Positions 4,968 through 39,144 are shown, counted from the stretch's first letter. The stretch is DNA of 39,144 nucleotides from Candidatus Bathyarchaeia archaeon (GCA_041489375.1 JBGPRA010000002.1:1-39144), one strand, 5' to 3'. Notes: generated by a model not told the origin, from the sequence alone. Numbers and translations are program-made.

Positions 4968-5084
4968 TATAGTTGGTAAGACATTAATTTTAAGCGCGCT
5001 TGGCGTGTTATTACGCGCGCAATAAAATATATGAAAATAAATTAGTAATGATATTAACTACATTGCTCCTCTTACAGGTATATT

Positions 5085-5882: not shown

Positions 5883-5934
5883 TGTTTTTGTGTCCCTTTT
5901 CGCGCTAGCATAGCTTCTATTATATATTATACCG

Positions 5935-5945
5935 GCGCGCGTGTG
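5935..5945. repeat. CG/TG-alternating tract gcgcgcgtgtg followed by T8
   Basis: Read directly: accgGCGCGCGTGTGtttttttt, at the right edge of the AT-rich islet. Confidence 0.85.
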
Positions 5946-5988
5946 TTTTTTTTGAAGGATTAGGTTTCACAGTTTATGGTTCTTAAGT

Positions 5989-7290: not shown

Positions 7291-7339
7291 TCTATGAAAA
7301 ATATGATCAGAAAAAGGAATGGATAGCATGTACTCGTCG

Positions 7340-7349
7340 ACGCGCGCGT
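7340..7349. repeat. Perfect 10-bp CG palindrome ACGCGCGCGT between convergent genes
   Basis: Read directly: gtcgACGCGCGCGTatc. Confidence 0.9.
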
Positions 7350-7356
7350 ATCTTGT

Positions 7357-9214: not shown

Positions 9215-9267
9215 CGCGTGGAACGGGGGATAAGACTTTCCAGAAACATTGCTCGCTCAAAATTCTG

Positions 9268-9277
9268 TTAATATATA
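9268..9277 (+). promoter_or_regulatory. Candidate TATA box for the creatininase-family gene
   Basis: ttaatatata lies ~30 nt upstream of in-frame TTG 9306/9309. It falls inside the long ORF-track version (9249 start), which argues for the shorter gene. Confidence 0.4.
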
Positions 9278-9305
9278 CGGAAACCCCTGTACTTTCGGGT
9301 GCGTA

Positions 9306-10732: not shown

Positions 10733-10850
10733 GCTGACTTCTATCTAGTGGGTTATGAATAATTTAACGTGATTTAGTCGCTCCAGGCATAATGAGGTTT
10801 GAATAGGGTAGTAATTCAGGCGTTCACTCGCGCACGTGTTGCTGGTTTTG

Positions 10851-10860
10851 TGCGCGCGCA
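10851..10860. repeat. Perfect 10-bp CG palindrome TGCGCGCGCA; a related tract cgcgcacgtg lies at 10829-10838
   Basis: Read directly: ttcactCGCGCACGTGttgctggttttgTGCGCGCGCAact. Confidence 0.9.
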
Positions 10861-11163
10861 ACTATACACGACAGCGAGTATGGCTACTAACTACTATGGT
10901 GCATCTATAAGGCACTACTCGATAAAAACTCAGCTTCTGCCACTACAGCTATAAACGCGTTGGCCAAATACACCAAAAAGAATGAGCAACTACACAAAGA
11001 CCTAATGGAACACTTCAAGACTGCTCCGAAGGAAAAACGTGACCTCATCAAGGTACACCGCACACACCAACTTCCCTCCTTCAAATAACATCGCCCTAAA
11101 CCCTCCCTATACCTAAACTCGTCATCGATGGCTCATCTCTTTTCGTCTCATTTTCGCTCCTCA

Positions 11164-12740: not shown

Positions 12741-13658
12741 TTGTCTGCAGCGTTCCATGGCGCGAAGTATTGCTGGATGGATGGGAAAGTTGTGGAGACT
12801 GAGCATGCGCTCGTCTCGGCGATGGAGCCCATATACCTCGGAATATTTGAGGGCATAAAGGCGTACACACAGGGCAACATAGGCGAGCTTTCCGTGTTCT
12901 CCTGGAACCAACATATGGACAGGTTGTGGAGGAGCGCGGCTATAGACGGGTTAAAGATGCCCTACAGCAAAGACGAGCTTCTAGAGGGGCTCAAAGCAGT
13001 TGTGAGCGCGAATAGCTTCAAGTCGAACATCTACATCCAGCCACGGATCTGGCCAAGGGCGGATGACCCTGAGGAGGTTCACGTAGTCATCCCTGTCTGG
13101 AAGTTCAGCACACTCCTGCCTTCTGGTAACCCTGAGTTCTCGAAGCAGAGGAGGTTCATGATCAGCAGTTGGAGGAGGATCTCGAGCGATGCTATGCCGC
13201 CTCAGGCTAAGAGTTGGGCGAACTACGCGAACAGCCAGCTAGCCGCCAGGGAAGCGCAGAGATGCGGCTACGACTCCGCGATATTCCTCGACAACAGAGG
13301 CTTCGTATCGGAAGGCACGGGGGCGTGCCTCATGGGCGTTCGTGATGGAAGACTGATTACCCCCCCTGTGACCGCCAGTATCCTCGAATCCGTTACTAGG
13401 AACTTCTTCCTAGAGTTCATCCCCAAAGAACTCGGGATACCGGCAGATGTGAGGGATATTACCCGGGCGGAGCTCTACGCGTGTGATGAGGTCTTCTTAT
13501 GTGGTACTGGGGGCGAGGTGACGCCTATTACCAGCATCGACGATATAGCCGTGGGGAAAGAATACCCTGGGTCCACTACCAAGAAAATTGCCAACTACTA
13601 CTCAGAGGTCCTCGCAGGGATAGTCGAGAAATACAATAGCAGATTAACCCCAGTGTAG
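12741..13658 (+). CDS. ilvE: Branched-chain amino acid aminotransferase (PLP fold type IV)
   Basis: 305 aa. Class IV pattern with a W(M)DGK N-terminus, EGTGACLM and GTGGEVTPITSID segments. Non-ATG start at 12741, or ATG 12777. Confidence 0.8.
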   Translation: MSAAFHGAKYCWMDGKVVETEHALVSAMEPIYLGIFEGIKAYTQGNIGELSVFSWNQHMDRLWRSAAIDGLKMPYSKDELLEGLKAVVSANSFKSNIYIQPRIWPRADDPEEVHVVIPVWKFSTLLPSGNPEFSKQRRFMISSWRRISSDAMPPQAKSWANYANSQLAAREAQRCGYDSAIFLDNRGFVSEGTGACLMGVRDGRLITPPVTASILESVTRNFFLEFIPKELGIPADVRDITRAELYACDEVFLCGTGGEVTPITSIDDIAVGKEYPGSTTKKIANYYSEVLAGIVEKYNSRLTPV

Positions 13659-14210: not shown

Positions 14211-14288
14211 TCTGTTTAACTCTGTATTAATTTGCGGTGTTTACTGCGTTAACAGCTTTGTCATAACGCGTGCGCGTCGTGAGATATG

Positions 14289-17502: not shown

Positions 17503-17636
17503 GTGATCCCCTCAGACGAATTTTTTTAAGGTAGCGCACGTGAAAAGAAAGTTTTTCGATGCGTGTACCATTTTTTTAATTGCGCACGCGACAGCCGATG
17601 TTCAATATCTGACTAAAACTGAATCCTAACTTGGTT

Positions 17637-20856: not shown

Positions 20857-20879
20857 TATCTTTCACCTCATAGTCAGTC

Positions 20880-20895
20880 CGCATGCGCGCGTGCG
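20880..20895. repeat. 16-nt CG-rich alternating tract cgcatgcgcgcgtgcg in a divergent promoter spacer
   Basis: Read directly between the M24 start (20856) and the aldolase start (21009). Confidence 0.85.
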
Positions 20896-21008
20896 AGATA
20901 AGGGCGCTATTGACTTTATTAGTGATATCAAAATCTTCAGTCGTGCGTGCTCAATTGTAACATCCTTTTTAGAGCGAGCAGCGACTACTCTAACCTAGGT
21001 TAATTATC

Positions 21009-21818: not shown

Positions 21819-21900
21819 TCCGCCTCACACGTCGCGCGTGCGACTATAGCCATGGACCGGAAAACACCTGCGATAATCTATCCCACGAAGGTACACATAG

Positions 21901-21910
21901 GCGCGCGCGC
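21901..21910. repeat. Pure (GC)5 tract
   Basis: Read directly: catagGCGCGCGCGCtttt. Left boundary of an orphan gene fragment. Confidence 0.9.
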
Positions 21911-22090
21911 TTTTAAGGGCTGTTGAGCAGAGTCAGCGCCTGGCCAATTCTTGTAGGTTTTCACCCAGATATCCATTTTCCAAGGACCAGCGTTAACGTC
22001 CCAGTCGTCGGCTTCTTTTTGGTGGATATTCTTTAGGAATTGAGAGGCCTTTTCGGCAGTCGCTATTCCTATGAATATATCTTTGTTAAC
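21911..22090 (-). pseudogene. Start-less orphan coding fragment (~60 aa) bracketed by two (CG)n tracts
   Basis: The minus-strand frame reads VNKDIFIGIATAEKASQFLKNIHQKEADDWDVNAGPWKMDIWVKTYKNWPGADSAQQPLK, then ARAP through the CG tract. A TAG lies immediately upstream and there is no start codon. Composition is protein-like; family not recognised. Confidence 0.4.
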
Positions 22091-22116
22091 CTATTTTTTA
22101 CCATCCAGCGTTCTGT

Positions 22117-22127
22117 CGCGCGCGCGC
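22117..22127. repeat. Pure (CG)n tract cgcgcgcgcgc
   Basis: Read directly: ctgtCGCGCGCGCGCctgaac. It lies just to the right of the orphan fragment. It is followed at 22138-22160 by a partial copy of the right half of the 31-38 kb repeat (cttgaaacacaaccgttcattaa). Confidence 0.9.
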
Positions 22128-22446
22128 CTGAACACGTCTTGAAACACAACCGTTCATTAACATCACCGAACCGAGAATGGAGATTATACCCCAACTCGAT
22201 TTAGGTAAAGAGAAGTAAATCAACTATTAACATTAACTAGAATCATCCCGATGCTAGATGTGATCAAACGCTAAATATTATTCGCGTGCGATCCTGCTAT
22301 GGTCGCGTTTGTGGGTGAACTAATATTCTAATGATGGTTATTTGGTGGGGCTTGTTAATCACAGTGGCCTCGAGGTGTGTACCTTAACGATTTGTTAAAG
22401 CCTCGTGGATAGCTTTATACTGTCTATTTCGTTAGTTTAATTCAAG

Positions 22447-26995: not shown

Positions 26996-27039
26996 ACGTG
27001 TTTCACTAAATCCTATGTCTAAGCGATGAATCGTTTATT

Positions 27040-27048
27040 CGCGCGCGC
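27040..27048. repeat. CG tract cgcgcgcgc at the 5' edge of the ADC-like reading frame
   Basis: Read directly: tattCGCGCGCGCtcgag. Confidence 0.9.
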
Positions 27049-27107
27049 TCGAGAAGGGTGTAAAGTTTGAGGATGTTGAATTCGGTGGCTGGAAGGTTAA
27101 GTTCCCC

Positions 27108-27770
27108 GTGGTGTACAGTGACCAGTCCAGGATAGTTACAAATTATACCGTCTCACTTTCAAAGGCTAAGACTATGCTTCCGAGTAAGAGACTGGAGCCC
27201 ATCGAGGTGAAGCCTGGGCTGGGGATGCTGAGCATCATCGCCTTCGAGTATAGGGCGATCGAAGGTCTGAAGCCCTACAATGAGTTCGGGACGTTCATAC
27301 CGGTCAATTACCGTAAGGAGGATGGTTCATTGGGCGACGCAGGGTCCTACTGCCTTCATCTCCGCGTGACAACTGAGAGAGCCCGATATGGGGGGGTCGC
27401 AATATATGGGTTCCCAAAGTTCGTCGCCGACATCGAGTTCGTCTATGGGAAGGATGCCACGACCTGCGTTGTGTGGCATGATGGAAAGACCATCGCGGAG
27501 CTGTCGGTGAAAAATGTGGAACCAAAGAGAGTTACGAGAAGGTCAATTTCTTATACCTATAAAGATGGCAGCGTACTGAAGACTTCAGTAGACGCTGAGG
27601 GGCTCGTTGGAACCAGTCAGGTTAAGGACGGGGCGAAGTTCAAGCTAGGGACACACAGGATAGCAGACGAGCTAAGGGGGCTAAACCTGGGACCAGAAGC
27701 GGTCGAGTATCAATACATACCCCAGATGTACAGCCTACTCCACAAACCGAGTGAGCGTCTCCCCGCTTAA
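27108..27770 (+). CDS. Acetoacetate-decarboxylase-like (ADC family) protein, probably 5'-truncated
   Basis: VVYSDQSRIVTNYTV..AKTMLP..LEPIEV.PG.GMLSIIAFEY....KPYNEFGTFIPV follows the ADC-family beta-cone N-terminal pattern. The frame is open and protein-like back to 27049 (LEKGVKFEDVEFGGWKVKFP), with no canonical start before GTG 27108. Confidence 0.5.
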   Translation: MVYSDQSRIVTNYTVSLSKAKTMLPSKRLEPIEVKPGLGMLSIIAFEYRAIEGLKPYNEFGTFIPVNYRKEDGSLGDAGSYCLHLRVTTERARYGGVAIYGFPKFVADIEFVYGKDATTCVVWHDGKTIAELSVKNVEPKRVTRRSISYTYKDGSVLKTSVDAEGLVGTSQVKDGAKFKLGTHRIADELRGLNLGPEAVEYQYIPQMYSLLHKPSERLPA

Positions 27771-27780
27771 GGTGAGATGA

Positions 27781-30132
27781 ATGGCTGAGAAAGGCTTCCC
27801 CAAGGTCAAACCGGACAAGAAGGGTTCACCCGTGTCGGTCGTGAGGATGGACCCCAACCATTCCTACGTCGGTATCCCCGAGCTACTCCGATTGGTTATA
27901 GATAAAAACGATGAGCAAGCCTGGGCGGAGATAAGGCGCAAGATCGATTACACCTACACAAACATCGACAAGATGCTCCGAGCATTGAGCAAGGAATCCG
28001 ATTTCCTCATGAAGATACGTGAAGAGCTCGGTAAGGGTAAAATACTATTATTCAAGCCAAACCTCGTCAACCCAACTAACATAGATCCGAACACGCACGG
28101 ACCCGCCCTAGGTCACACAGCCTGCACCGAGTGGCCCTTCATCGCTGCCTTGATGAGGTGGTTCCACGAGAACCTCCCAATTAGCTACTCGAGGATGGTT
28201 CTCGGCGAAGCGGCGACCGCCTCCACGATGACCGCAGCCATGTATAACCAGACGCAGCGTCCGAAGAGAAAGATTACAACGGAAGCTGTATTCGAGGGAC
28301 GATCTGGAGATTTTCACGGAGGCTGGGGCTTCTACTACGTGAGAAAGTACCTGCGAGATGCATCAAGCGACACCGAAGACGATCCTATGCTCGGATACGA
28401 GGAGAGTGTATCCGGGAAATACCTGCCGCCGGGGAAGACGAGGGGTAGGATGATGGTCTACGACCTCAACAAACTCAACGATATCAAGGGCAAGGCCCGG
28501 ACAGTGCCGGTGAAGGACGGGGTAAACTATCGAGAGATAACCTTGCCTAAGGTACTGGTAGGCGGCGACCCGAAGGACCAGAAGGATCTACAAGACTACC
28601 CTGGTGCAGTTCTAGTGAATGTGCCGCGGCTTAAACTCCATGGAATAGACCTCCTTACTAACGCAATCAAGAACCTTGGGATCGGGCTATATCCGATGGA
28701 GATCGGGGAGACGGATGAGCCCCGCGACACCCATTGGAAGTATGCCTACCCGTTTAACGAGATCCCCGGCATGAAGACCGAGATCCCACACTCGGTGTGG
28801 GTGCCAGAGTTCGTAGAAGAGACGGGCCTCCCGATCAAGGGGAAGGATGGCCGTTACAAGTTAAGGAAGACGGGGGGGATATCGGCTACTCAGGCAGACG
28901 TCATCGAGGCCACATTAGACCAAGGCGTCTACATGCTTCATCTCGTCGACGGTATCCAGACAGTGAACATCAACCACTCAGGAGGCTCAAATGCCAAAGA
29001 GATCCCGGAGGGTCTAGCCTTCGCGTCTGAGAACCCAGTAGCGTTGGACCTCCTCTGCGCGAGGTACATCTTCAAAAACGTACCCCGCCTGGAAGCCAAG
29101 AAGTCGGGGCTCGGATCAGAGTTCCTTCAAATGGTCCCCTCACCGAAGATTGAAGGAGGGCAAATAGTGAGTGGAGAAGCGTACGACTCCCCTCTGTTGA
29201 GATACAGCTGGTATGGAAACGCTGAGAAGCGTGGCCTAGGGTCACAACTATACCACGTGGTGGGGTGGGACGATGTTGAGAAACTCCCCTTATCGTCGGT
29301 TGATGGGCACCTGGGTTCTTGTGTGGGTGATGGTTTCAAGGAATCGATCACGACGGAGTTCTATTATGATCCGTCTAATCTCCTCTGGGGGCTGCAGAGA
29401 ACCGCTTTTGACTACTTCCGATCAAACGATGAGTTGACCAAATCTAGTTATTTGAGAAAAGTTCTGAATGCATACGATGAGAATGGTGATGGGCAGCTTG
29501 ACTACGATGAGATGGGGAGGGATGCCTTCTGGCATAGCTATCTGAGACTAGCGGCCTATTGTTATCACTTCAGAGGGGTGAGCCCGTTGGGGGGCATCAA
29601 GTCTGGTTTCCTGATGAGTGCCTTCTATCGTTATGCAGATCCCTCGTGGAACCCGTCGGGGCACGATTTCATAAAGAACTACAAGATAGTATCTGACTTT
29701 TCACTCGCTTATGAGCTCTCAAAGTCTTCCAAGAGTAACGTTGACCCTCTCCACCCTGGAATGAGTTGGGGAAATGGGGCTTGGCCGAGTATGGACTTCG
29801 CGGGGATGCTCTCCACGATGATGAGGATATATGGTCAAAGCTACCCGACTCGAGTCAGCCTCTCCTCCCTATATGGTTACGCGTTCCAGTACGCTGACAA
29901 GGTGCAGGCGAATGGATACTATACGGGGGGCACGGGGCTGAATTCCGACCGCGAATCCCTGAACAAGTACCTCAAGGACTCCGAGAGCGGTTTACAGAAA
30001 CTGAAGCTCAAGGTCTATGTACCTAAGGGATTCGGCAAAATGGGCAAAATAACATATCCAAACCTAGAGGAGACGAGTGACCCTGCGAAGATATTCACAG
30101 CCGTATTCCCAGATGAAAAATGGGAGATATGA
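27781..30132 (+). CDS. Large DUF362-domain protein with a C-terminal extension containing a canonical EF-hand loop
   Basis: ILLFKPNLVNPTN, VLVNVPRLKLHGIDLLTNAIKNLGIG and ASENPVALDLLCARY match the DUF362 pattern. DENGDGQLDYDE (29476-29511) fits the 12-residue EF-hand loop. Starts 10 nt after the ADC-like stop. Confidence 0.7.
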   Translation: MAEKGFPKVKPDKKGSPVSVVRMDPNHSYVGIPELLRLVIDKNDEQAWAEIRRKIDYTYTNIDKMLRALSKESDFLMKIREELGKGKILLFKPNLVNPTNIDPNTHGPALGHTACTEWPFIAALMRWFHENLPISYSRMVLGEAATASTMTAAMYNQTQRPKRKITTEAVFEGRSGDFHGGWGFYYVRKYLRDASSDTEDDPMLGYEESVSGKYLPPGKTRGRMMVYDLNKLNDIKGKARTVPVKDGVNYREITLPKVLVGGDPKDQKDLQDYPGAVLVNVPRLKLHGIDLLTNAIKNLGIGLYPMEIGETDEPRDTHWKYAYPFNEIPGMKTEIPHSVWVPEFVEETGLPIKGKDGRYKLRKTGGISATQADVIEATLDQGVYMLHLVDGIQTVNINHSGGSNAKEIPEGLAFASENPVALDLLCARYIFKNVPRLEAKKSGLGSEFLQMVPSPKIEGGQIVSGEAYDSPLLRYSWYGNAEKRGLGSQLYHVVGWDDVEKLPLSSVDGHLGSCVGDGFKESITTEFYYDPSNLLWGLQRTAFDYFRSNDELTKSSYLRKVLNAYDENGDGQLDYDEMGRDAFWHSYLRLAAYCYHFRGVSPLGGIKSGFLMSAFYRYADPSWNPSGHDFIKNYKIVSDFSLAYELSKSSKSNVDPLHPGMSWGNGAWPSMDFAGMLSTMMRIYGQSYPTRVSLSSLYGYAFQYADKVQANGYYTGGTGLNSDRESLNKYLKDSESGLQKLKLKVYVPKGFGKMGKITYPNLEETSDPAKIFTAVFPDEKWEI

Positions 30133-30165
30133 TCTGCACGCGAATTACTGCGCACTAAATGTACT

Positions 30166-30179
30166 CATAATAAATATTG
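30166..30179 (+). promoter_or_regulatory. Candidate TATA box for the MBL gene (near-leaderless)
   Basis: cataataaatattg is centred ~26 nt upstream of ATG 30199. Confidence 0.35.
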
Positions 30180-30198
30180 ACCCTTACAACTATCACTC

Positions 30199-31380
30199 AT
30201 GAGGTTCATCGTCTTACTTGATGTCCCCAGCGAGGGTATCCAAGGCTTCGTCGATGATTGGAGGAATCGGAAACCAAAGGACGTTAAGATCCTGCTACGT
30301 CCCCATATCTCAGCGGAGGCCCTCAGAGGCGCCCAGCTCCTCACGGTAGTCGAGGCGAAGAAACTGAGCCCGATAACCGACTACTGCAGGTCACTAGAGG
30401 GGCAGGGAGCAAAGGTACAGCTGGTCCCCATACAAGATGACCAATCTGCGTCTCGAGAGCTGAATAAGTTTTACAACGCTAAGAGAAGAGCTGAGAGACA
30501 CAACAGAAACGTGAAGACCAGGAAGCTCAAAGGCGTCGGCTCCACCAAAAATTTGACTGTGCTACCCCTAATCGATTGGCGCACCAACGATAAGGAATTG
30601 ATGGTGGAGACCGGAGTCTCCTACTTGGTGAGGACCGAAGGTAACACCATCTTATTCGACACCGGATTGAATAGCGCTGAGGAGGATCCTTCCCCCCTTC
30701 TGCGCAACATGAGGAAGCTAGGTGTCACATTGAACGAGATTGACATCATTTTCATCTCCCATAATCATGGGGACCACGTGGGTGGAGACAAGTGGGCTAA
30801 GGATAAGACCTTCAGCGTCACGGGGAGCCAGGAGCCACTAGGTGACATCAAGGTCTATGTGCCGACGGAGATGACCTACCCCGGCCTGAACCCCGTTTAT
30901 GCCCGTGACCCCCTGGTCATTGGTGAGGGCATCGCATCCACGGGCACCATCGCCAACAGCTTGTACCTCTGGGGATTCACCGAGGAGCACAGCCTTGCTG
31001 TGAACGTTGATGGGAGAGGTATAGTGCTAATCGTCGGCTGTGGCCATCACACGGTTCCCAGGCTCCTTGAGAGGGTCAGAGCCCTGTTCGACGTGCCCAT
31101 CTACGGTATTATTGGGGGCCTCCACTACCCCGTCATGGGCGGCCCTAGAGAGGTGTATGGGTACGCGATGCACAAGTACGCGGGCACTGGGAAGCCTCCG
31201 TGGGAGCATATCACGGTGGAGGAGCTCAATGCTAACATCGAGCTGCTGAAGAGTCTGAACTTGGGTTTGGTTGCTCTGTCGTCTCATGATAGCAGCGCCG
31301 TTAGCATGGAGGCTTTCAGTGATGCGTTCCCTGATGCGTATCGGAGCCTGAGGGTGGGTGAGCCTATAATCGTCAAGTGA
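30199..31380 (+). CDS. Metallo-beta-lactamase-fold hydrolase with an unknown ~130-aa N-terminal domain
   Basis: ISHNHGDHVGG (HxHxDH) with downstream GCGHH. The N-terminal domain is not recognised. Confidence 0.8.
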   Translation: MRFIVLLDVPSEGIQGFVDDWRNRKPKDVKILLRPHISAEALRGAQLLTVVEAKKLSPITDYCRSLEGQGAKVQLVPIQDDQSASRELNKFYNAKRRAERHNRNVKTRKLKGVGSTKNLTVLPLIDWRTNDKELMVETGVSYLVRTEGNTILFDTGLNSAEEDPSPLLRNMRKLGVTLNEIDIIFISHNHGDHVGGDKWAKDKTFSVTGSQEPLGDIKVYVPTEMTYPGLNPVYARDPLVIGEGIASTGTIANSLYLWGFTEEHSLAVNVDGRGIVLIVGCGHHTVPRLLERVRALFDVPIYGIIGGLHYPVMGGPREVYGYAMHKYAGTGKPPWEHITVEELNANIELLKSLNLGLVALSSHDSSAVSMEAFSDAFPDAYRSLRVGEPIIVK

Positions 31381-31383
31381 CTA

Positions 31384-31402
31384 GCGTACGCGACGTGTGC
31401 GC
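31384..31402. repeat. 19-nt unbroken purine-pyrimidine alternation gcgtacgcgacgtgtgcgc
   Basis: Read directly, 4 nt after the MBL stop. Confidence 0.85.
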
Positions 31403-31487
31403 CTGCCCATATGATTGTGCACGAGTTAATGGTTAAATCTGGATTAAACTAGACACATTCATGGGCTCCAGACTTGAGTCCGTCCGA

Positions 31488-31530
31488 TGGGGTAAGTCAG
31501 CCTTACTACTTCTATCCTAGTGCAATGAAC
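31488..31530 (+). repeat. Intergenic repeat, degenerate copy Z
   Basis: tggggtaagtcagccttactacttctatcctagtgcaatgaac shares TGGGGTA, AGCCTTA and ATCCTAGT with copies D and E. Confidence 0.4.
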
Positions 31531-31550
31531 TGGATCCACGGCGCCTAGCA

Positions 31551-32114
31551 GTGATGCATGTGAGGCACACTGAGCGCGTCGATTCATTCAAGGGCTCCGA
31601 CGGGCGCATGGCATCGACTTCCGTTGGTAGGGAAGCCGCAGCGGAGTTTGGTGAAAAGCTCCCCCTGAATAGACGCTATCGACTCTTCCACACCTACCTA
31701 GAACGAACCCGCGAGACGGCGGAGGAGATGCAGAGAGGTATAGTCAAGGGAGGTGGATGTGCTAAGCTTTGGGGAGAGATCAGACCACTTAAGACTTTAG
31801 ATTTGGAGGCGTTTCAGAGGTGGATACAGGACTGTAGATGGTTCCCCGAGGACGGTGGCTATCACGCCACGTGCAATTGGATCGCGGGTCTAATCCCCGA
31901 AACGATCCGTGACCCTTCGATTAGCTTCGCACGGGGGATGGCGGAGATTACTATGAATAATTTACTTGGGGCACAGTCGAATGCCTTTCATATCTACGTC
32001 AGCCACGATACGTGGGTTCAGGCCCTAGTATTCCACTGGTTCGGTGTTCCTCCTCATCAAGGTGGGTTGCGGTTCCTTGATGGGTTCCTTATGCAGCCCT
32101 TTGATGGGGTATAA
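31551..32114 (+). CDS. Histidine phosphatase superfamily (phosphoglycerate-mutase-like) protein
   Basis: VRHTER near the N-terminus (RHG-type motif) and a late YVSHDTW (second catalytic His context). GTG start. Confidence 0.6.
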   Translation: MMHVRHTERVDSFKGSDGRMASTSVGREAAAEFGEKLPLNRRYRLFHTYLERTRETAEEMQRGIVKGGGCAKLWGEIRPLKTLDLEAFQRWIQDCRWFPEDGGYHATCNWIAGLIPETIRDPSISFARGMAEITMNNLLGAQSNAFHIYVSHDTWVQALVFHWFGVPPHQGGLRFLDGFLMQPFDGV

Positions 32115-32185
32115 GGGCTTGGTTTGGAGGCGGTTGCGAAGTTTTTGATTACTCTTATTGGTGGCCTAGGACAGTATAATGTCTC

Positions 32186-32210
32186 TAGATAATCTTATCC
32201 TCAGTTTCAC
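32186..32210 (+). repeat. Intergenic repeat, copy A
   Basis: tagataatCTTATCCTcAGTTtCAC lies between two convergent genes. Confidence 0.6.
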
Positions 32211-32245
32211 TTAACGATTTACTGTTCGCGTATGCGATTCGGTGT

Positions 32246-33968
32246 TTATTGCCTACGATAGTGTGCATGGACAGCTAGGAGTAGGGCTGATAACATCACT
32301 CCGAGGAGCGTTGCCTCTAATGGGAACCCTGGTATCCCTCCGCCACTGGTCCCGTCGCCTCCCGTAGTCTGGGTTTGAAGAGTGATGCTGACGGTTGACA
32401 CGCTACCCACCGTCACCGCACCCTGAGTAGAAGCCGACACATACCCGCTCTTAGACGCCTGCATCGTGTAGCTGCCAGGCGCAACACCTGAGAGGGTCAC
32501 GACGCCGTCGCTACCCGTCGCCCCACTAAGGGCCTGCTGCCCGCTTGGCTGAGTCGTCGAGGAGACGCTCGCGCCAGCAATCGGCTTACCGTCCTTGTCT
32601 TTGACTGTGACCTTGAGGTCGCCCTTCGTAGAGGCTACCTTAAGCGTCAGTGTGACCTCAGCGGTGCTCGCGGAGGTGACGCTCACGGTTGTGGTCGCTG
32701 CCTGGTACCCGTCCTTGTCCGCTTTGATCGTGTAGCTGCCTGGCTTCACGTCGCTGAACAATACTACACCGTCGCTGTTCGAGTTATCCTTGAGGCTCGC
32801 CTGACCGCTTAGCTGAGCAGTCGTCCCCCCGCTTGCCCCGGAGACTGGGTTTCCCGCCTCGTCCTTGACAGTGATCTTCAGACTGGTTTGTGCAGTTGTC
32901 TCCCCAGTTATTATCGCGCACTTTAAAACATTTTTCGAGTCATCATAGTAACTGATCCAAGGGTGGCTCTTTGAATCCAATGTTATTGAGGTGTAGAGTC
33001 CAACCCACCCCTCTGAGTCAACCGTCTGAACACTCCAGGTGAAGCCGGTCCATACGGCGTACTTCAAATCTAGATTTGTGTAGTCGTGGTAGCTAATTGA
33101 TGGATTATCGTTGGAGTCAAGGGCTAGAGAGGAATAGTCTCCGACGTTTCCGGTCGTGTCTATTGTCTGTTTAGACCATGATGTGCCCGTCCACTTGGCG
33201 TACTTAAGATCAAGTTTTCCACCGTCGTAGTAGCTTATGCAGGGATAGCCGCTGGAATCCAGTTCAAGAGATGGAGACTCGCCAACATACCCCTCAGAGT
33301 CTATGATTTGGATGGCCCACGTTCCACCAGTCAGCTTGGCGTATTTTAGGTCATTGACCGTGTCATCGTAGTAGGCGATGAATGGGTTACCGATTTTATC
33401 GAGGGCGAGAGACGTGCCCTTGCCAACCGCGTTAGCTGTGTCAACTGTCTGAATAGCCAGGCAGACCCGGTCCCCTGGCATATTTTAGATCTTCATTCGC
33501 GTAGTCCTGGTAGCTTATGCTCGGGCTGTCATTTGAATCTAGGGCAAGGGATGTATATTTTCCTACGCTACCAGGTGAGTCCGTAACTTGTATTGTCCAG
33601 GCTGAGCCGGTCCATTTAGCGTATTTTAGGTCGCCGTTCCTTTTATCGAAGTAGCTTATGCATGGGTTGTCCTTAGAGTCTAAGGCGAGTGATGAATACT
33701 CCCCCAGGTTTCCTGTTTCCACCGTCTGAACACTCCAGGCGGAGCTTGTCCACTTGGCGTACTTTAGAGCACCCAGCATAGAGTCAAAGTAGCTTATGCA
33801 GGGATTATCGCTCGAATCCAAAGCGATGGAACTAGTCCTGCCAACCATTGTGCTATTATCCACAACCTGAATACTCCAAATCGGAGTCGTAGCAGTCAGA
33901 GAATTCAGACTGAAAGACAGTAGGATTACAGATAAGAGGATCAGATTGAACGCTTTTTTAGTTTTCAT
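32246..33968 (-). pseudogene. Cell-surface protein disrupted by two 1-nt deletions: signal peptide, ~9 propeller-like repeats, 2 PEGA/CarboxypepD_reg-like Ig domains, PGF-CTERM-like anchor
   Basis: The ORFs 33441..34025 and 32246..33481 carry one continuous repeat series (D..P.ISYYD....LKYAKWTG..W..Q.VD). The frame changes twice within ~25 nt near 33450-33480. C-terminus GGIPGFPLEATLLGVMLSALLLAVHAHYRRQ. Likely start ATG 33968 (MKTKKAFNLILLSVILL, GGAG upstream). Confidence 0.7.
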
Positions 33969-34127
33969 TACCCGTCTCCTTTTCAGGGTTCTATAATCTA
34001 GATTTGGGAGTTTACTATTTATCAACTTCTACTGGTTAGAGTGGCGTAAAACTATGCGGTTCAGCAGTTCTGTTCACTAACGTATTCATTGAAGAGAGCT
34101 TTCACTCGCACACGCGTCGCTTGTTAC

Positions 34128-34158
34128 ACATCCTTATTCTGAGTTCCACCTGAGAACC
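34128..34158 (+). repeat. Intergenic repeat, copy B
   Basis: acatCCTTATtCTGAGTTCCACCTGAgaacc lies in a divergent spacer. Confidence 0.75.
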
Positions 34159-34169
34159 TCATTATTAAT

Positions 34170-34179
34170 CGCGCGCGCG
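34170..34179. repeat. Pure (CG)5 tract
   Basis: Read directly: taatCGCGCGCGCGaac, 12 nt after repeat copy B. A related tract cgcacacgcgt lies at 34107-34117. Confidence 0.9.
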
Positions 34180-34203
34180 AACTAAAGTCTGCGTAATACT
34201 TAC

Positions 34204-34214
34204 ACATATTAACC
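34204..34214 (+). promoter_or_regulatory. Candidate TATA box for the SDR gene
   Basis: acatattaacc is centred ~30 nt upstream of ATG 34239. Confidence 0.3.
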
Positions 34215-34238
34215 GATACTGCGAAAGAAGAAAGTTGT

Positions 34239-35021
34239 ATGAACAGACTACGGGGGAAGACCGCATTGATCACGGGGGCGGGTTCGGGTATTGGCAGGGC
34301 AACGGCCATCCTATTCGCAGCTGAAGGCGCTCAAGTCGCAGTTAACGACATTAGCGGAGAGGCGGGGCACGAAACTGTAAGACTAATTCAAGAAGCCAAG
34401 GGAGAAGCCACATTCTACAAGGCGAATGTTACAAAGTGGCCGGAGGTGAAAGCCATGGTCAGTCAAGTACGTGATCGCTACAATGGAATCGATATACTAC
34501 ACAACAATGTGGGAGGATGGCAGAGAGAAAACAATGATACCGTCATCAACGATTCCGAGGAGGAGTGGGACAGGCTCATCAACCTGAACCTTCGCGGGGT
34601 GTTTCTCGTATCGAAAGAGGTGATTCCAATTATGATTGAAAAGGGCGGTGGATCGATAATAAACACCATCACTACGAACGCCTACATGAACTATGTTGGG
34701 AGTCAAGCGTACGGCGCAGCGAAAGGGGCCGTGCGAGAATTAACGAGGTCGATGTGTCTTGAATATGCCAAACACAACATCAGGGTCAACGGACTGGTCC
34801 CAGGTGAGACGATAACACCTCAGTGGACGACATCAATCGAGAGTTCTTCAAACCCAGAAGAATCGAAGAACTTCCTTCTCAAGAAGATACCGATGGGGAG
34901 ATTTGCTAAACCAGAAGACATAGCCTTGGGAGCGCTCTTCCTCGCCTCTAACGACTCAAGCTATGTCAATGGTCACATTCTCTTCGTCGATGGTGGGCTG
35001 ACTGCTGGGTTCTACGGATAA
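34239..35021 (+). CDS. Classical short-chain dehydrogenase/reductase (FabG-like)
   Basis: TGAGSGIGRA cofactor motif, NNVG, catalytic YGAAKGAV (YxxxK), and PG after the active site. Confidence 0.9.
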   Translation: MNRLRGKTALITGAGSGIGRATAILFAAEGAQVAVNDISGEAGHETVRLIQEAKGEATFYKANVTKWPEVKAMVSQVRDRYNGIDILHNNVGGWQRENNDTVINDSEEEWDRLINLNLRGVFLVSKEVIPIMIEKGGGSIINTITTNAYMNYVGSQAYGAAKGAVRELTRSMCLEYAKHNIRVNGLVPGETITPQWTTSIESSSNPEESKNFLLKKIPMGRFAKPEDIALGALFLASNDSSYVNGHILFVDGGLTAGFYG

Positions 35022-35061
35022 GTGAGGAAAGAACTGGAGCAGGTAGGGGAATGCGCGTGCG

Positions 35062-35091
35062 AATAGTCTTATCCTGAGTTCCACTCGATAC
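35062..35091 (+). repeat. Intergenic repeat, copy C
   Basis: aatagtCTTATCCTGAGTTCCACtcGATAC lies between convergent genes. It is directly preceded by the CG tract atgcgcgtgcg (35051-35061). Confidence 0.8.
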
Positions 35092-35184
35092 CCTACTCTA
35101 TCAACAAGGCTGAGTGTAAATAAGGCAAGAAGTCCCGCAAACATTAGCCCACACAAAATAGAGGTTAGTTCTCCAGCATCTGTT

Positions 35185-35982
35185 TTAGGATCTCGTTGAT
35201 GTGGTCTGCTTCTTTCTTACCCAATCGGCTAATTCCTTGCCTGTAGGAAACCAGACCCCACCAGCACACTTCGCTTCCGAGATGAACTTCTCTAGCATCT
35301 TGAGCCGACTCACTCTCCCTATACACTCCGGATGGCATGTCAGGCCGAAGTATCTACCAAGCTCATGAAGCCCCTCCCACTCGGGTTTCCACAGCCTATA
35401 GACCTCATCAGGGCTCATCCTATCCATCTCGAAGTGAGGCCAATCGTCGAGGAGCCACTCGACTGGAAGCTCAACGAGCCCTGTGTCCACATTGTTATGC
35501 TTCAGCATATAGGGCATATCTTCGTCCATCATATTGCTACTATACTGGAACCCCAGGCGCTTCATGTGGTTGAGGCTACGCTCATTAAACATCCAATATG
35601 GGGCTCTGTATCCATGGGGCTTGACGCCGACGCGCTCCAACGCGGCGAGGCTCCTTTCCCAGACCTCAACTTCTTTCTCGGCTGTCAACTCAGTCATTCT
35701 TTCGTGGCTATAGCTATGAGCGGCTACCTCATGACCGCGACTAATGATCTCAGTAACTGAATCTTGGTGGTTGTCGCAGGTCCATCCTGGGGTGAAGAAG
35801 GTTGACTTGATCTCGAGTCTGTCGAGGAGGTCCATGATCCTTGGGACCGCGACTTGGGGAGCGTAGCGCCCTTTGCTGAGTGATGAAAGGTCGTCGGGGG
35901 TCTTCCAAGTTTCGGCGCTTGAGGCATCGTAGTCGAAGCTGAGGAAGAAACAGCTTTTGTAACTTTTTGGCCAGAATCCCAT
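35185..35982 (-). CDS. Polysaccharide deacetylase (NodB homology domain, CE4)
   Basis: SFDYD (motif 1 variant), HSYSH (motif 2) and YRAPYW (motif 3 context). Confidence 0.85.
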   Translation of the reverse strand: MGFWPKSYKSCFFLSFDYDASSAETWKTPDDLSSLSKGRYAPQVAVPRIMDLLDRLEIKSTFFTPGWTCDNHQDSVTEIISRGHEVAAHSYSHERMTELTAEKEVEVWERSLAALERVGVKPHGYRAPYWMFNERSLNHMKRLGFQYSSNMMDEDMPYMLKHNNVDTGLVELPVEWLLDDWPHFEMDRMSPDEVYRLWKPEWEGLHELGRYFGLTCHPECIGRVSRLKMLEKFISEAKCAGGVWFPTGKELADWVRKKQTTSTRS

Positions 35983-36028
35983 TAATTCACCGGGAATTAT
36001 AAGCGTTAGGCTCTAGATTATAATTCTT

Positions 36029-36101
36029 TTGGGGTATGTGACGAACATAGCCTTATCCTGAGTTCCATCTGATACTCAACCGTGATTGTATGGTTGATCT
36101 A
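36029..36101 (+). repeat. Intergenic repeat, copy D (full length, runs into the first four codons of the 36090 gene)
   Basis: TTGGGGtatgtgacgaacATAGCCTTATCCTGAGTTCCAtCTGATACtCAACCGTGAttgtATGGTTGATCTA. Confidence 0.85.
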
Positions 36102-36638
36102 GCATTGCTCCAATCCATCTCATACATGGCTGGGGCGTTGGGAGTATGCATAGCGGCGCTGAGCTTCGTCTTGAACATGAGGGCGACCACGAAGAACAGG
36201 AAAGTCACCTTCACCACCAACCTGCTGAGCACCACTGCCTCGAAGGAGGGAATTCTGGACTTCTACGAGTTGATGTCCATACGGTGGACGGACTTCGACG
36301 ACTTCAAGAGGAAGTACGATTCGAGGGTGAACCCGGAGAACTTCATCAAACGAGTACATAAATGGAACATATTTAGAAACGTCGGTTGGCAGCTCAGGGC
36401 TGGCGTAGTTGACTGGGATACGGTCCGTAAAATTACTGGAAGAGATATGATGAATATGTGGCTTAAGTTCGAGCCCATAATAAAGGAGTACAGAAAACAG
36501 GAATATCGCTCAGATCAATATGCAGACTGGGAGTACATAGCTCAGCGAATGGAGGAGGATCTCAGTCTCGAAGAGAAGAAAAAGTCTCAATACGTCATTA
36601 ATGATGCTTTCAAGAATGAGAACACCCGAGCCACCTAA
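36090..36638 (+). CDS. Hypothetical protein with one N-terminal TM helix
   Basis: 182 aa. TM SISYMAGALGVCIAALSFVL, then a soluble Trp/Lys/Asp-rich domain. Family not recognised. Confidence 0.55.
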   Translation: MVDLALLQSISYMAGALGVCIAALSFVLNMRATTKNRKVTFTTNLLSTTASKEGILDFYELMSIRWTDFDDFKRKYDSRVNPENFIKRVHKWNIFRNVGWQLRAGVVDWDTVRKITGRDMMNMWLKFEPIIKEYRKQEYRSDQYADWEYIAQRMEEDLSLEEKKKSQYVINDAFKNENTRAT

Positions 36639-36642
36639 TGTG

Positions 36643-36673
36643 TGGGGCCATAGCATATCCTAGTTCCACCTTA
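36643..36673 (+). repeat. Intergenic repeat, copy E
   Basis: TGGGGCcATAGCatATCCTaGTTCCACCTta begins 5 nt after the stop of the 36090 gene. Confidence 0.75.
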
Positions 36674-36679
36674 CATTAG

Positions 36680-36808
36680 AAATATCTTAACCCAAAGTTA
36701 CTTTTGGCATAATCCTCATCTAATATGCAATAATCTTATCCTCGCTTCTATCTAGTATTTGACCGTAAATTGTGAATGATTGACCTCATAATAATTCAGT
36801 CGCGTGTG
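36680..36808 (+). repeat. Composite repeat unit F (palindrome CCAAAGTtACTTTTGG, spacer, core copy, decayed MIDL mini-ORF, CG tract)
   Basis: 36680-36741 aligns almost base for base with 37248-37310. The core aatCTTATCCTcgcttctatc starts at 36732. ATGATTGACCTC at 36776 parallels ATGGTTGATCTA of copies D and G. Ends in cgcgtgtg (36801-36808). Confidence 0.7.
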
Positions 36809-36873
36809 AGATTCCACTAAGCTTCTTCATATGCGTGAGGATTTTTTATTAGAAGCCAACATCCAATAGTATT

Positions 36874-37215
36874 ATGGTGAACCTCAACCAGGCGATAATC
36901 GTTATACTCGCTGGCATCGCAGTGGCCATCGCGGACGGCATGATTAAAAAATCTGCTATCGGCGTTTCCTTTACCGATGCGTTGAAGAATCCTCTCATGA
37001 TAGGCGTGGTGTTCCTGTATCTCGTGCAGATTGCGTTCTTCACCTACGTTTTCGTGAATGGTTGGCAGCTGGGAGTTGTCGGGGTTTTACAGATGGTTGC
37101 TTACTCCGCATTTGTGATATTGACGGGTGTCTTCGTCTTCAAGGAAAGCTTTACCGTGACTCAGTACTTTGGTTTGGTTTTGGCTGTCAGTGGCATTGTT
37201 TTGATCAATCTATAA
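36874..37215 (+). CDS. Small 4-TM DMT/EamA-half protein (ArnE/ArnF- or SMR-like)
   Basis: 113 aa with four hydrophobic helices. The KKSA loop after TM1 and the C-terminal LVLAVSGIVLINL are typical of single-EamA small transporters. Confidence 0.6.
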   Translation: MVNLNQAIIVILAGIAVAIADGMIKKSAIGVSFTDALKNPLMIGVVFLYLVQIAFFTYVFVNGWQLGVVGVLQMVAYSAFVILTGVFVFKESFTVTQYFGLVLAVSGIVLINL

Positions 37216-37247
37216 ACTTTATTTCATGTGTGCGACTTGGAACTCGG

Positions 37248-37385
37248 AAAAACCTTACCACAAAGTTACTTTGGCATAAGCCTCATCTAACGTATAATAA
37301 TCTTATCCTGAGTACCACCTTATATTTCTCAGTGAATTATAGATGGTTGATCTACAGACCATCGATGTTATAATACGCATACAGT
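37248..37385 (+). repeat. Composite repeat unit G (same architecture as F)
   Basis: aaaaaccttaCCACAAAGTTACTTTGGcataagcctcatctaacgtataataatCTTATCCTGAGTaCCACCTtatatttctcaGTGAattatagATGGTTGATCTA. An inverted partial core (cttGGAACTCgG, 37237-37247) and the CG tract catgtgtgcg (37225-37234) lie just upstream. Confidence 0.75.
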
Positions 37386-37433
37386 TCAGTGAATAGGAGC
37401 TGCAGCAGTCAGCCACTCCATGAGGAGAAACGA

Positions 37434-38417
37434 ATGAAGATCATCGACGTCCACAACCACGTGAACCCGCGTCCATTCCTGGAGGCAGTGCGAGCCGGTC
37501 ATAGTTGGTATGGATTCACCGCCGAACACGGCGAGCTTGAGAACCCACGGAACCACTGGACCCTAGAAGAGCGGATTGCCGAAATGGACCGACTCGGAGT
37601 GGATATACAGGCACTCACCGTCTACGGCGACTTCAACAAATACGACCGAGCCCCGGAGAATACTAAAGCAGCGGTCAGGGCTTGCAACGACGAGGTGGCA
37701 GCCATGGTCGATGAGTACCCCGATCGATTCGTTGGCCTGGGCATTCTACCCTTGCAGGACGTAGCAGCATCGGTAGTTGAACTCGAGCGGGCAATCACCG
37801 ACCTAGGGCTGAAGGGCGTCACAATCAAGGACCACATCAATGGGAAAACCCTAGACGAGCCACAGTTCCTCCCCTTCTGGGAGGCTGCTGAGCGGCTGGG
37901 AGCCGTCGTTGAGTTCCACCAGGGCAGCACGATTGTGGCGCAGCGGATCCCACGCTACTTCCTCGAGAACACAGTCGGCAATCTGGTGGAGCGTGTGCTC
38001 ACCTTTGGGGCTCTGGTGCATGGCGGGATCATCGATCGCTTTCCTAAGCTGAAGGTTTGTCTGCTGCATGGGGGCGGCTATGTGGCTTTCGGGGTTGCCC
38101 GTATGGACAAGGGTTGGGAGGCGGCGAAGCTGGACTATATGGTCAAGTACTCGAGTGAGGATGCCCGCCAGTCGATATCTAAGCCTCCGAGCCAGTACGT
38201 GGGGAGCTTTTATTACGACTGTTGCACCTTCAGCGAGTCGACTCTGCGTTTCCTGATTGACACTGTGGGGATCGAGAGGGTAGTATTCGGGACCGATTAC
38301 CCTTGTCCTATGGAGATGGTGAATTCGGTTAATTGGATCAATAGCCTGGGGAGCCTTAGCTGTTCGGAGAAGCAGGCGATTTTGTCGGTGAACCCGGCCC
38401 GGATCCTCACCATCTGA
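37434..38417 (+). CDS. Amidohydrolase-2 family metal-dependent hydrolase/decarboxylase (ACMSD-like)
   Basis: MKIIDVHNHV (HxH), HGGG and FGTDYP motifs. GAGGAG lies upstream of ATG 37434. The ORF-track start 37389 falls inside repeat G. Confidence 0.85.
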   Translation: MKIIDVHNHVNPRPFLEAVRAGHSWYGFTAEHGELENPRNHWTLEERIAEMDRLGVDIQALTVYGDFNKYDRAPENTKAAVRACNDEVAAMVDEYPDRFVGLGILPLQDVAASVVELERAITDLGLKGVTIKDHINGKTLDEPQFLPFWEAAERLGAVVEFHQGSTIVAQRIPRYFLENTVGNLVERVLTFGALVHGGIIDRFPKLKVCLLHGGGYVAFGVARMDKGWEAAKLDYMVKYSSEDARQSISKPPSQYVGSFYYDCCTFSESTLRFLIDTVGIERVVFGTDYPCPMEMVNSVNWINSLGSLSCSEKQAILSVNPARILTI

Positions 38418-38434
38418 CTAGTTGGCTAGCTAAT

Positions 38435-38488
38435 TTGGGGCTATAACCCTATCCTGAGTTCCACCTGATACACAACCGTGAACATTTA
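38435..38488 (+). repeat. Intergenic repeat, copy H (full length)
   Basis: TTGGGGCtATAaCCcTATCCTGAGTTCCACCTGATACaCAACCGTGAacattta. Confidence 0.85.
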
Positions 38489-38557
38489 TCTCAAACGAGT
38501 TCGCAGTAATCAGAGATCGTAATTTGATAATTTTTTATCTTTACAGAACAAGTCACA

Positions 38558-39067
38558 TTGAGCTGCGTCGAATTGATAGTCGAGAAGACATTCGAATCAC
38601 CTGAGTGTAGGCTGAACTATGCGGAGGGCCCAGATAACGGCCCACCATTGTTACTATTACATGGAGGACAGGACCGTTGGCAGGACTACCTACCACTAAT
38701 GTCGGTGCTAATCACTCGATGGCACCTATACGCCCTGGACTTCAGGGGACACGGGGGATCCGAGCACACACCTGGAAGATACAAGCTAAGAAGCTTCACC
38801 TCAGATGTGGCCACTTTCGCAGAGCAGAAAATAGGGAAGCCTATGATGTTGGTAGCACATAGCATGGGTGGCATAATCGGCTTAATGGTTGCAGCTAACC
38901 ACCCAAATCTAGTGAAGGCACTTGTTGTAGGTGACGCTCCCCCCAAGGAAAGCCTTAGAGCATCTGCAATGCACCCTCTCTTCACCCTGACCCATCGCGC
39001 GCGCATAGAAACCTGCGATTCCAGCGTTCATCGCGGTCTCCCCCACCTCGATGCCGTTGATGTGTAG
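38558..39067 (+). pseudogene. Alpha/beta-hydrolase, 3'-truncated after about 146 aa at a CG tract
   Basis: LLLLHGG (oxyanion region) and the nucleophile elbow AHSMGG are present. The Asp/His half of the fold is missing. From 38996 the frame runs through cgcgcgcgc into the antisense of another gene fragment and stops at 39067. Confidence 0.6.
38996..39004. repeat. CG tract cgcgcgcgc at a head-on junction of two gene fragments
   Basis: Read directly: cccatCGCGCGCGCatag. Confidence 0.9.
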
Positions 39068-39127
39068 ACTCGCGATGCTTGTACCATTGTAAGTGTGACT
39101 CAAAGTGCCATTCAACGTGCCTTTCAT
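39005..39127 (-). pseudogene. N-terminal 41 codons of an unidentified minus-strand gene, ending at the CG tract
   Basis: MKGTLNGTLSHTYNGTSIASLHINGIEVGETAMNAGIAGFY, then ARA through the tract, then the antisense of the hydrolase. May instead be an internal Met of a gene starting beyond the window. Confidence 0.3.
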
Positions 39128-39144
39128 GCTCTGGTACCCTACAA

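Follow-up and report, generated by a model that had tools for sequence, protein, structure and literature searches.

The last part of a 39,144-nt stretch of DNA from Candidatus Bathyarchaeia archaeon (GCA_041489375.1 JBGPRA010000002.1:1-39144; the window) carries a short repeat at its gene boundaries, built on a 33-nt core, CCATAGCCTTATCCTGAGTTCCACCTGATAC. This repeat is almost certainly the 5' module of genes encoding proteins of the DUF4760 family, which is the firmest conclusion of our analysis. We further consider it probable that the module is a DUF4760-specific promoter and leader, that it stands in decayed tandem arrays that are hotspots of gene turnover, and that solo copies sometimes drive captured genes. 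Literature searches did not turn up a description of the core element.

The 945 open reading frames (ORFs) of the related loci, called by a simple longest-ORF procedure, formed 607 clusters with one large family, comprising 113 DUF4760-like proteins of ~181 amino acids that start with MVDLALLQS and have an N-terminal transmembrane helix. A co-oriented core accompanied all 113 of the corresponding ORFs (141 related loci plus the window), the ATG lying 39 to 41 nt after the CTTATCC motif of the core. The module consists of the 33-nt core, a leader of 10 to 15 nt with a GTGA or GGTGA box resembling a Shine-Dalgarno sequence, and the start ATGGTTGA (MVD..). From -8 to +25 the core hardly varies, and its 5' edge is sharp, even though the DUF4760 paralogs have diverged to a median amino acid identity of 30%. 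In tight arrays, the units are compact and head to tail, and the spacer is the core plus ~12 nt; among 65 cores with a co-oriented DUF4760 gene upstream, the TAG of CCATAG is the stop codon of that gene in 14. The loci were mostly ascertained by exact core match, with partial de-duplication of overlapping contigs, and the main points were rechecked on copies outside the ascertainment and on loci ascertained by protein. Loci fetched with the protein rather than with the motif displayed the identical arrangement: a distant lineage (L143/L144) has six or seven DUF4760 genes in tandem, with the core, a 490-kb contig (L142) has a single-copy DUF4760 gene with the core following a ~190-nt spacer, and the core is also found in arrays L146 and L147 and in L148, another contig of the genome to which the window belongs. 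The 5' half is the part best kept in the distant lineage (CATARYCTTATCCTC), and across lineages conservation is likewise highest in the 5' half (ATARYCTTATCCTC) and lower in the part resembling an anti-Shine-Dalgarno sequence.

In the window, the core is present in five strong and three degenerate copies, all on the plus strand, between positions 32186 and 38472. An earlier reading, made from the sequence alone, had counted nine. Eight of these stand, and the ninth, at 31488, was negative with the profile described below and belongs to the N-terminal coding region of a histidine-phosphatase gene, whose ortholog in RBG_13_52_12 (239 amino acids, aligning with this sequence at 84%) starts with MGSRLESAQWGKP and shares the ATG at 31461. 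The 23-nt core CTTATCCTGAGTTCCACCTGATA, allowing up to 3 mismatches, matched the plus strand at 34133, 35068, 36052, 37302, and 38448 (5 observed versus 0.00 expected from shuffles). A 16-nt core gave 7 matches in the window versus 0.28 expected, six of them within the block, including 32194, and the seventh on the minus strand outside the block (9219, 3 mismatches). A repeat finder applied to positions 30000 to 39144 returned one seven-copy family. With a profile built from related copies, for which positions refer to the C of CTTATCC, the five 23-nt matches scored 26 to 47 bits, and weak scores were obtained at 32194 (10 bits), 36654 (7.5 bits, with two deletions), and 36735 (8.4 bits). The profile detected no copy in the remaining 32 kb of the window; partial matches suspected earlier at 22138 and 10153 are not copies by this measure. 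The most rightward copy closes the array at 38472, and the 3.4 kb past the end of the window in L001 (GCA_041478955.1 contig 17) contains no further copy. Since the block has the same gene order in two independent assemblies, L001 and L002 (a JGI contig), which are 99.84% and 99.95% identical to it, it is not an assembly artefact. The strict co-orientation of the copies and the presence of one gene per interval, with genes on both strands, were found as the sequence-only reading had described them.

Only one unit of the window is intact: that at 36044 to 36089, in which 38 nt separate CTTATCC from the ATG of a DUF4760 gene. The leftmost core (32186 to 32218) separates the histidine-phosphatase gene (plus strand) from the 3' end of a split surface-protein gene (minus strand). 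The unit at 37294 to 37354 runs on into a DUF4760 start stub and is followed by unrelated sequence and then by an amidohydrolase gene (ATG at 37434); RBG_13_52_12 keeps both the MVDL stub and the amidohydrolase gene at 93% (L017, 569-1692). The copy at 38440 to 38485 lies 110 nt upstream of a truncated alpha/beta-hydrolase ORF.

Genomes and metagenomes of Bathyarchaeia contain hundreds of core copies, almost always intergenic. When one genome per species was scanned for the exact pattern, 19 loci were obtained, 18 of them from Bathyarchaeia metagenome-assembled genomes (MAGs) and one from a bacterial MAG, the latter match being probably due to chance. In the exact-pattern scan, RBG_13_52_12 alone had 15 loci on 13 scaffolds, and a metagenome scan gave at least 120 loci. 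The profile matched 321 copies in the 0.73 Mb of the 141 related loci. All copies are on a single strand in 84 of the 86 multi-copy loci, and the two mixed-strand loci rest on weaker matches (E values of 0.004 and 8e-5). Consecutive copies are spaced by a median of 662 nt, with exactly one ORF in 117 of 181 intervals; 169 ORFs are co-oriented with the repeat and 50 are opposite. The description of the locus as cassette-array-like is supported; co-orientation is general, and most intervals hold one gene.

About two thirds of the copies are solos, with unrelated genes of either orientation next to them. A DUF4760 gene follows the core in 29% of 276 copies, and another co-oriented gene follows at a variable distance (median, 123 nt) in 44%; in 27%, the core points at the 3' end of a convergent gene. 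All four patterns of neighboring genes are present (105, 35, 35, and 13 copies), and a co-oriented upstream gene exists for 140 of 188 copies and is missing for 48. Genes other than DUF4760 beside cores are weakly co-oriented (109 versus 67), and the SDR and MBL genes retain AT-rich boxes of their own ~35 nt before their starts. Many of the solo copies run on into the family leader and start codon and break off at varied points. A tblastn search with DUF4760 identified 32 N-terminal-only segments, some of which are short artefacts, and 9 C-terminal-only fragments. The solos therefore look like leftover DUF4760 units in which the ORF was truncated or replaced, with a co-orientation inherited from the tandem array; remnants that carry variously long stubs, along with a few C-terminal fragments, better explain why copies occur in convergent and divergent spacers. 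Core variants group by array (GAGT in 5/5 copies in the window, CACT in 10/11 in L084, and CAGC in 5/5 in L112), which fits a tandem origin in situ. Genome-wide homogenization of core variants was rejected, as sharing was 0.31 within versus 0.30 between groups in an ascertainment-biased test, leaving clustering at the array level only. Two types of foreign gene, encoding Amidohydro_2 ('MVE..') and Fer4 (+39), start at the DUF4760 start position, 39 to 40 nt after CTTATCC (L146, 3565-3610 and 1445-1490; L003, 62-110); these genes appear to be fused to the DUF4760 leader and first codons.

Gene content between cores varies among species-level relatives in the manner that cassette gain and loss had been predicted to produce, and on this basis we regard the arrays as turnover hotspots. 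RBG_13_52_12 orthologs of the MBL and histidine-phosphatase pair, of the SDR gene, and of the amidohydrolase gene of the window are 84 to 93% identical and are located on three scaffolds with other neighbors, homology stopping at or near core edges. In the same genome, the SDR unit is inverted between two co-oriented cores (L019). Three loci with the same flanking genes, L026, L093, and L133, differ in what lies between: a reversed gene for a 159-amino-acid protein in one, a DUF4760 gene in another, and two other genes in the third. Each flank nevertheless keeps its own core, on the left as on the right. A core was no more than 40 nt away from 30% of the homology ends versus 14% for random intergenic positions, an enrichment that is two-fold only. 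At the 99.8% level, the array of the window is invariant in three assemblies.

The position of the core is what suggests a promoter. Archaeal promoters have a TATA-type box ~26 nt upstream from the transcription start, and the span from the transcription factor B recognition element to the start matches the length of the 33-nt core. Genes that lack the motif have maxima of AT content and of TATA-like k-mers at -40 to -30, and of GGTGA at -15 to -10, from the start codon, so CTTATCC occupies the TATA position. The sequence-only reading had argued against a promoter from the mixture of spacer types; that argument is undermined because every DUF4760 gene is flanked at its 5' side by the invariant core, whose CTTATCC lies 38 to 42 nt before the ATG, at a position that is TATA-like elsewhere. 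We infer from this that the core and leader form a predicted DUF4760-specific promoter/leader module. Head-to-tail tandem arrays of DUF4760 genes would make the modules co-oriented, and truncation of the DUF4760 ORF, or its replacement by unrelated genes in either orientation, would leave solo modules. The region from 32186 to 38472 would then be a decayed array, with an intact unit at 36044 to 36638 and seven solo or degenerate modules. Solos located before other genes would probably drive them, and those facing convergent 3' ends would be without an obvious target. Exchange of the ORFs may proceed by homologous recombination between cores acting as portable homology, or by illegitimate junctions marked by CG-rich tracts.

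Several observations weigh against the promoter/leader interpretation. CTTATCC contains G and C and is much less AT rich than the TATA-like boxes of neighboring genes. All 33 positions are near-invariant across paralogs that are 30% identical, which exceeds the needs of a core promoter and implies an additional constraint, such as a bound factor, homogenization, or recombination. No co-oriented gene faces 27% of the copies, and the convergent-facing solos are as conserved as the gene-linked copies (median of 16 versus 17 bits for copies outside the ascertainment), which is not expected of decaying relics. By tblastn, the window has no DUF4760 coding remnant besides the MVDL stub. Finally, nothing but the core separates the genes of tight arrays, and transcription may run through it, which would allow a role at the RNA level.

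Such a role, in which the core would be an unstructured C/U-rich intercistronic or 5'-untranslated element that binds a regulator or small RNA, directs processing, or mimics an anti-Shine-Dalgarno sequence (CACCU), seems to us unlikely. The compact spacers and the CCATAG stop codons of tight arrays agree with it; the spacer consensus has no T-run terminator, making read-through likely from the sequence; a co-oriented upstream gene could transcribe the 140 copies mentioned above; and in some of the copies CACCTGA..TCAGGTG could pair. However, RNAalifold found 0 conserved pairs in 62 leaders, folds of cores and composites were no better than those of shuffles, and no Rfam match was obtained even at E values up to 1. 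The 48 copies without a co-oriented upstream gene, the long spacer before the core of the L142 singleton, and the better conservation of the 5' half than of the anti-Shine-Dalgarno-like part also speak against a role at the RNA level. As a candidate class, structured RNA was rejected on the absence of Rfam 15 matches at the gathering score in the window or at E values up to 1 in the 31400-to-38600 region; no tRNA or tmRNA was found.

The alternative that a new, non-attC cassette system of archaea recombines at the core, with a recombinase encoded elsewhere moving single-gene units, is in our estimation improbable. The strict co-orientation, the 662-nt single-ORF units, the different core-delimited units between the same flanks in L026, L093, and L133, the orthologous units on different scaffolds of RBG_13_52_12 with homology ending at core edges, the doubled frequency of homology ends near cores, and the equal conservation of solo and gene-linked copies are all in its favor. 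Yet no recombinase was encoded by window ORFs of at least 100 amino acids, nearly all of them scanned with Pfam, or by the Pfam-annotated related loci, including the gene tables of L001 and L142 to L149, and a regular-expression screen of the 945 neighboring ORFs did not reveal the box-II motif of tyrosine recombinases. The core is asymmetric and unstructured and lacks inverted binding arms; inversion of the SDR unit between co-oriented cores is not a product of one-site integration; the ends of DUF4760 stubs are scattered instead of coinciding in a single crossover point; no circular single-unit contig (matching ends, <6 kb) and no viral copy was detected; and the core is tied to DUF4760 even where the gene is single copy. 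We are equally doubtful of an integron-like capture platform, in which an asymmetric, promoter-bearing 33-nt site would bound the units, DUF4760 would be the default cassette, and a recombinase or a repair pathway would exchange the units, perhaps via CG tracts. The attC/integron class was rejected in the absence of a hairpin, core sites, and, among the ORFs and loci screened, an integrase. The sequence-only reading had found no RYYYAAC/GTTRRRY sites, long palindrome, or recombinase in the window, and inspection of the core consensus did not reveal a RYYYAAC/GTTRRRY pair; the nearest approach to an R' site, GTTGAYC in the start ATGGTTGAY, breaks the purine rule and is missing from most solos.

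Spread of the core on its own as a nonautonomous mobile repeat (a miniature inverted-repeat transposable element [MITE], a repetitive extragenic palindrome [REP] or REP-derived REPIN, or an IS200/605 derivative) is very improbable and largely refuted. The number and intergenic location of the 321 profile matches could suggest mobility, as could one TnpB-like fragment located 6 kb from the L147 array. That fragment, the 146-residue C-terminal part of a Cas12f1-like/TnpB protein (12808-13248, minus strand, at ~6 kb from where the DUF4760 genes of the array end), is the only transposon-related domain in ~100 kb of annotated neighborhoods. Against mobility, there are no palindromes, hairpins, or inverted arms in the core and no terminal inverted repeats in the block, where the repeat finder gave four weak, distant inverted pairs; no annotated locus encodes RAYT or TnpA; the register with the DUF4760 start codon is fixed; orientation is strict within arrays; the remaining 32 kb of the window is free of the core; and relatives differ by whole genes, not by the element alone. 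The likeness to integrons and REP/IS200-605 elements proposed from the sequence alone was not borne out in the tests applied, for want of a hairpin, a consensus RNA structure, and, in the ORFs and loci screened, a recombinase. Folding of three cores and two composites as single-stranded DNA, on both strands, gave z-scores of -1.9 to +2.2 versus shuffles, with small local stems only. A link to defense or viruses was also rejected: DUF4760 and its neighbors had no PADLOC or PHROG match, and no core copy was found in IMG/VR viral contigs. Our preferred reading remains that of a DUF4760 promoter/leader module in decayed arrays.

Features of the repeat block and CG-rich tracts in the window
Feature	Position(s)	Strand	Remarks
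Degenerate core ATAATCTTATCCTCAGTTTCACTTAACGA	32186..32218	+	2 mismatches to 16-nt core; 10 bits
Solo core	34125..34157	+	106 nt upstream of SDR gene
Solo core	35060..35092	+	37.9 bits; 3' of SDR stop, facing 3' end of minus-strand CE4 deacetylase gene (convergent)
Core and short leader (..CAACCGTGATTGT) up to DUF4760 ATG	36044..36089	+	46.5 bits
DUF4760-family gene (182 aa, starts MVDLALLQS)	36090..36638	+	Pfam PF15956; N-terminal transmembrane helix
Degenerate core CCATAGCATATCCTAGTTCCACCTTACA, two deletions, directly 3' of DUF4760 stop	36648..36675	+	7.5 bits; first part of composite
Module H TTAGAAATATCTTAACCCAAAGTTACTTTTGGCATAATCCTCATCTAATAT, with core-like CATAAGCCTCATCT inside	36676..36726	+	56 distinct instances in related loci
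Degenerate core	36727..36759	+	8.4 bits; 139 nt upstream of small EamA-like gene (36874-37215)
Module H, second copy, 3' of EamA-like gene	37244..37293	+	Repeat-finder families; E value, 6e-17
Core, leader, and DUF4760 start stub	37294..37354	+	Stub ATGGTTGATCTA (MVDL), 37343-37354
Core and leader remnant (..ACACAACCGTGAAC), final copy of array	38440..38485	+	42.8 bits
CG tracts	128-151, 4994-5025, 5929-5947, 7335-7354, 10847-10864		
CG tracts	14264-14279, 17579-17593, 20878-20898, 21827-21845, 21896-21915		
CG tracts	22111-22132, 27034-27054, 34164-34185, 35050-35064, 38990-39009		

The stretch from 36643 to 36732, described earlier as a 60-nt interval without a gene, is not an empty cassette but a conserved composite made of a degenerate core, the ~57-nt module H, and a second core, an arrangement that recurs at 56 distinct places in related loci. 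Module H (GAAAAATCTTAACCCAAAnTnACTTTGGCATAAGCCTCATCTTACGT..) is 57 to 75 nt long, exists in short and long variants, and is nearly always bracketed by two cores, for example in relatives at L015 5892-5959 and L018 399-466. RNAalifold predicted 0 pairs for 47 copies of module H, that is, no consensus RNA structure. Module H would correspond to a short noncoding transcript should the core upstream of it act as a promoter.

The DUF4760 protein of the window had 111 homologs, and those that are named are all hypothetical proteins of Bathyarchaeia or Bathyarchaeota. Matches of response-regulator and DUF proteins of the window are likewise compatible with a TACK archaeon. Its AlphaFold2 model is all alpha (pLDDT of 90) and had no fold match in the PDB, and a sequence profile search of the PDB was likewise empty. 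In L143, a gene encoding a PadR-family regulator (9174-9629) lies directly upstream of the tandem array of six to seven DUF4760 genes and a MazE/PIN toxin-antitoxin pair lies directly downstream; this PadR protein is a candidate for binding the core.

Short, CG-alternating, partly palindromic tracts (TTCGCGCGCGCGAA, ATGCGCGTGCGA, and TGCGCACGCGA) occur in many intergenic regions. Their density in all loci is 2.07/kb in intergenic DNA versus 0.43/kb in coding DNA, i.e., 5 times higher. They sit right where rearranged sequences join, be it behind DUF4760 stubs that were cut short, against the 5' edges of cores, or on the flanks of the SDR unit, and 24% of the homology ends located away from cores are within 15 nt of a CG tract versus 11% of controls. 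The tracts could be a real insertion or junction signature of the lineage. A specific association of CGCG with cores was rejected, as enrichment beside cores is 1.4- to 1.8-fold only and CG tracts are a general intergenic and junction feature. L001 diverges from the window exactly at the tract at 27034 to 27054 (..TTCGCGCGCGCT followed by CGAG in the window and ..ACTTACTCGCT followed by CGAG in L001), and the 516 nt upstream of that point (L001, 1-516) are AT-rich, unrelated DNA, reflecting either a strain-level insertion or replacement or an assembly join. CG tracts also flank a 1-kb stretch with 29% GC versus ~50% for the rest of the window, which contains a UbiA prenyltransferase gene (5085-5882) and is likely a recent foreign insertion; in L004 and L113, the DNA 3' of the orthologous aminotransferase gene is an array of core copies at the place held by UbiA in the window.

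The edges of the array also bear signs of decay. At the right-hand end, the truncated alpha/beta-hydrolase ORF (38558-39067, plus strand) abuts a truncated Peptidase_M55 ORF (~38909-39127, minus strand) according to the L001 gene calls, and the TCGCGCGCGC tract (38990-39009) lies in the overlap of the two ORFs, at the end of the hydrolase Pfam match; this marks the end of the array as a rearrangement scar. At the left edge, the histidine-phosphatase gene (31461-32114) has decayed, with an in-frame TAG (31518-31520) relative to the 239-residue ortholog. L002 has a 1-nt length difference from the window within 27201 to 37321, and its histidine phosphatase is called longer (208 amino acids). The surface-protein gene (CarboxypepD_reg/PEGA; 32246-34025, minus strand) is split into overlapping ORFs (32246-33481 and 33441-34025) and contains six tandem units of ~141 nt (33034-33826) that are 60 to 71% identical and encode a repeated 47-residue module, which has a weak BNR-like Pfam match and is unrelated to the intergenic repeat.

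Bathyarchaeia are abundant uncultured archaea of sediments, and, to our knowledge, almost nothing is known of their gene regulation and genome dynamics. The core provides a lineage-wide cis-element, present in hundreds of copies, that marks an expanded family of DUF4760 membrane proteins and also chromosomal islands with a turnover of unrelated metabolic genes among close relatives. If it is a promoter, it would offer a ready-made promoter class for a group without a genetic system and a case in which acquired genes were given a promoter; if it is a recombination site, it would represent a second, non-attC route to archaeal cassette arrays. Repeats of this type probably break up MAG assemblies, and attC-based tools would miss such arrays.

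Among known systems, REPs are palindromic hairpins mobilized by RAYTs (PMC8049555). Like REPs and their composite forms (bacterial interspersed mosaic elements and REPINs), the core is short, abundant, intergenic, and lineage specific; unlike them, it has neither symmetry nor structure, and RAYT and TnpA(Y1) genes were not encountered. Integron attC cassette arrays, including those of archaea (Ghaly et al. 2022, PMC9668308), share with the arrays described here co-oriented repeats, mostly single-gene units of ~0.6 kb with unrelated functions, and a content that varies among relatives. Most of the arrays described here are without an adjacent integrase, as in clusters of attC sites lacking integron-integrases (CALINs), and a minority of genes are reversed. 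In contrast to integrons, no imperfect-palindrome hairpin, R''/R' sites, or IntI was found here, the repeat flanks a single gene family on the 5' side and keeps register with the start codon of that family, units can be inverted between co-oriented repeats, and junctions in family genes fall at many positions. Solo long terminal repeats, as well as the silent or orphan cassettes of surface-variation and polymorphic-toxin loci, are remnants with conserved 5' ends. There, as here, a conserved end outlives the deleted or replaced body of the unit and offers homology for exchange, whereas in the Bathyarchaeia arrays no layout of expression site and silent copies, inverted sites, or dedicated recombinase is evident, and the replacing genes are unrelated metabolic genes rather than family variants. 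The nearest published concept is promoter reuse by putative mobile promoters (Nijveen, Matus-Garcia and van Passel 2012, PMC3575422). As in that concept, highly similar upstream sequences precede nonhomologous genes within and between genomes, and some foreign genes are fused exactly at the start of the donor gene. The module described here differs in being clustered, strictly co-oriented, and numerous, with about a quarter of its copies facing no gene, and in having remained near-invariant while the family to which it is native diverged.

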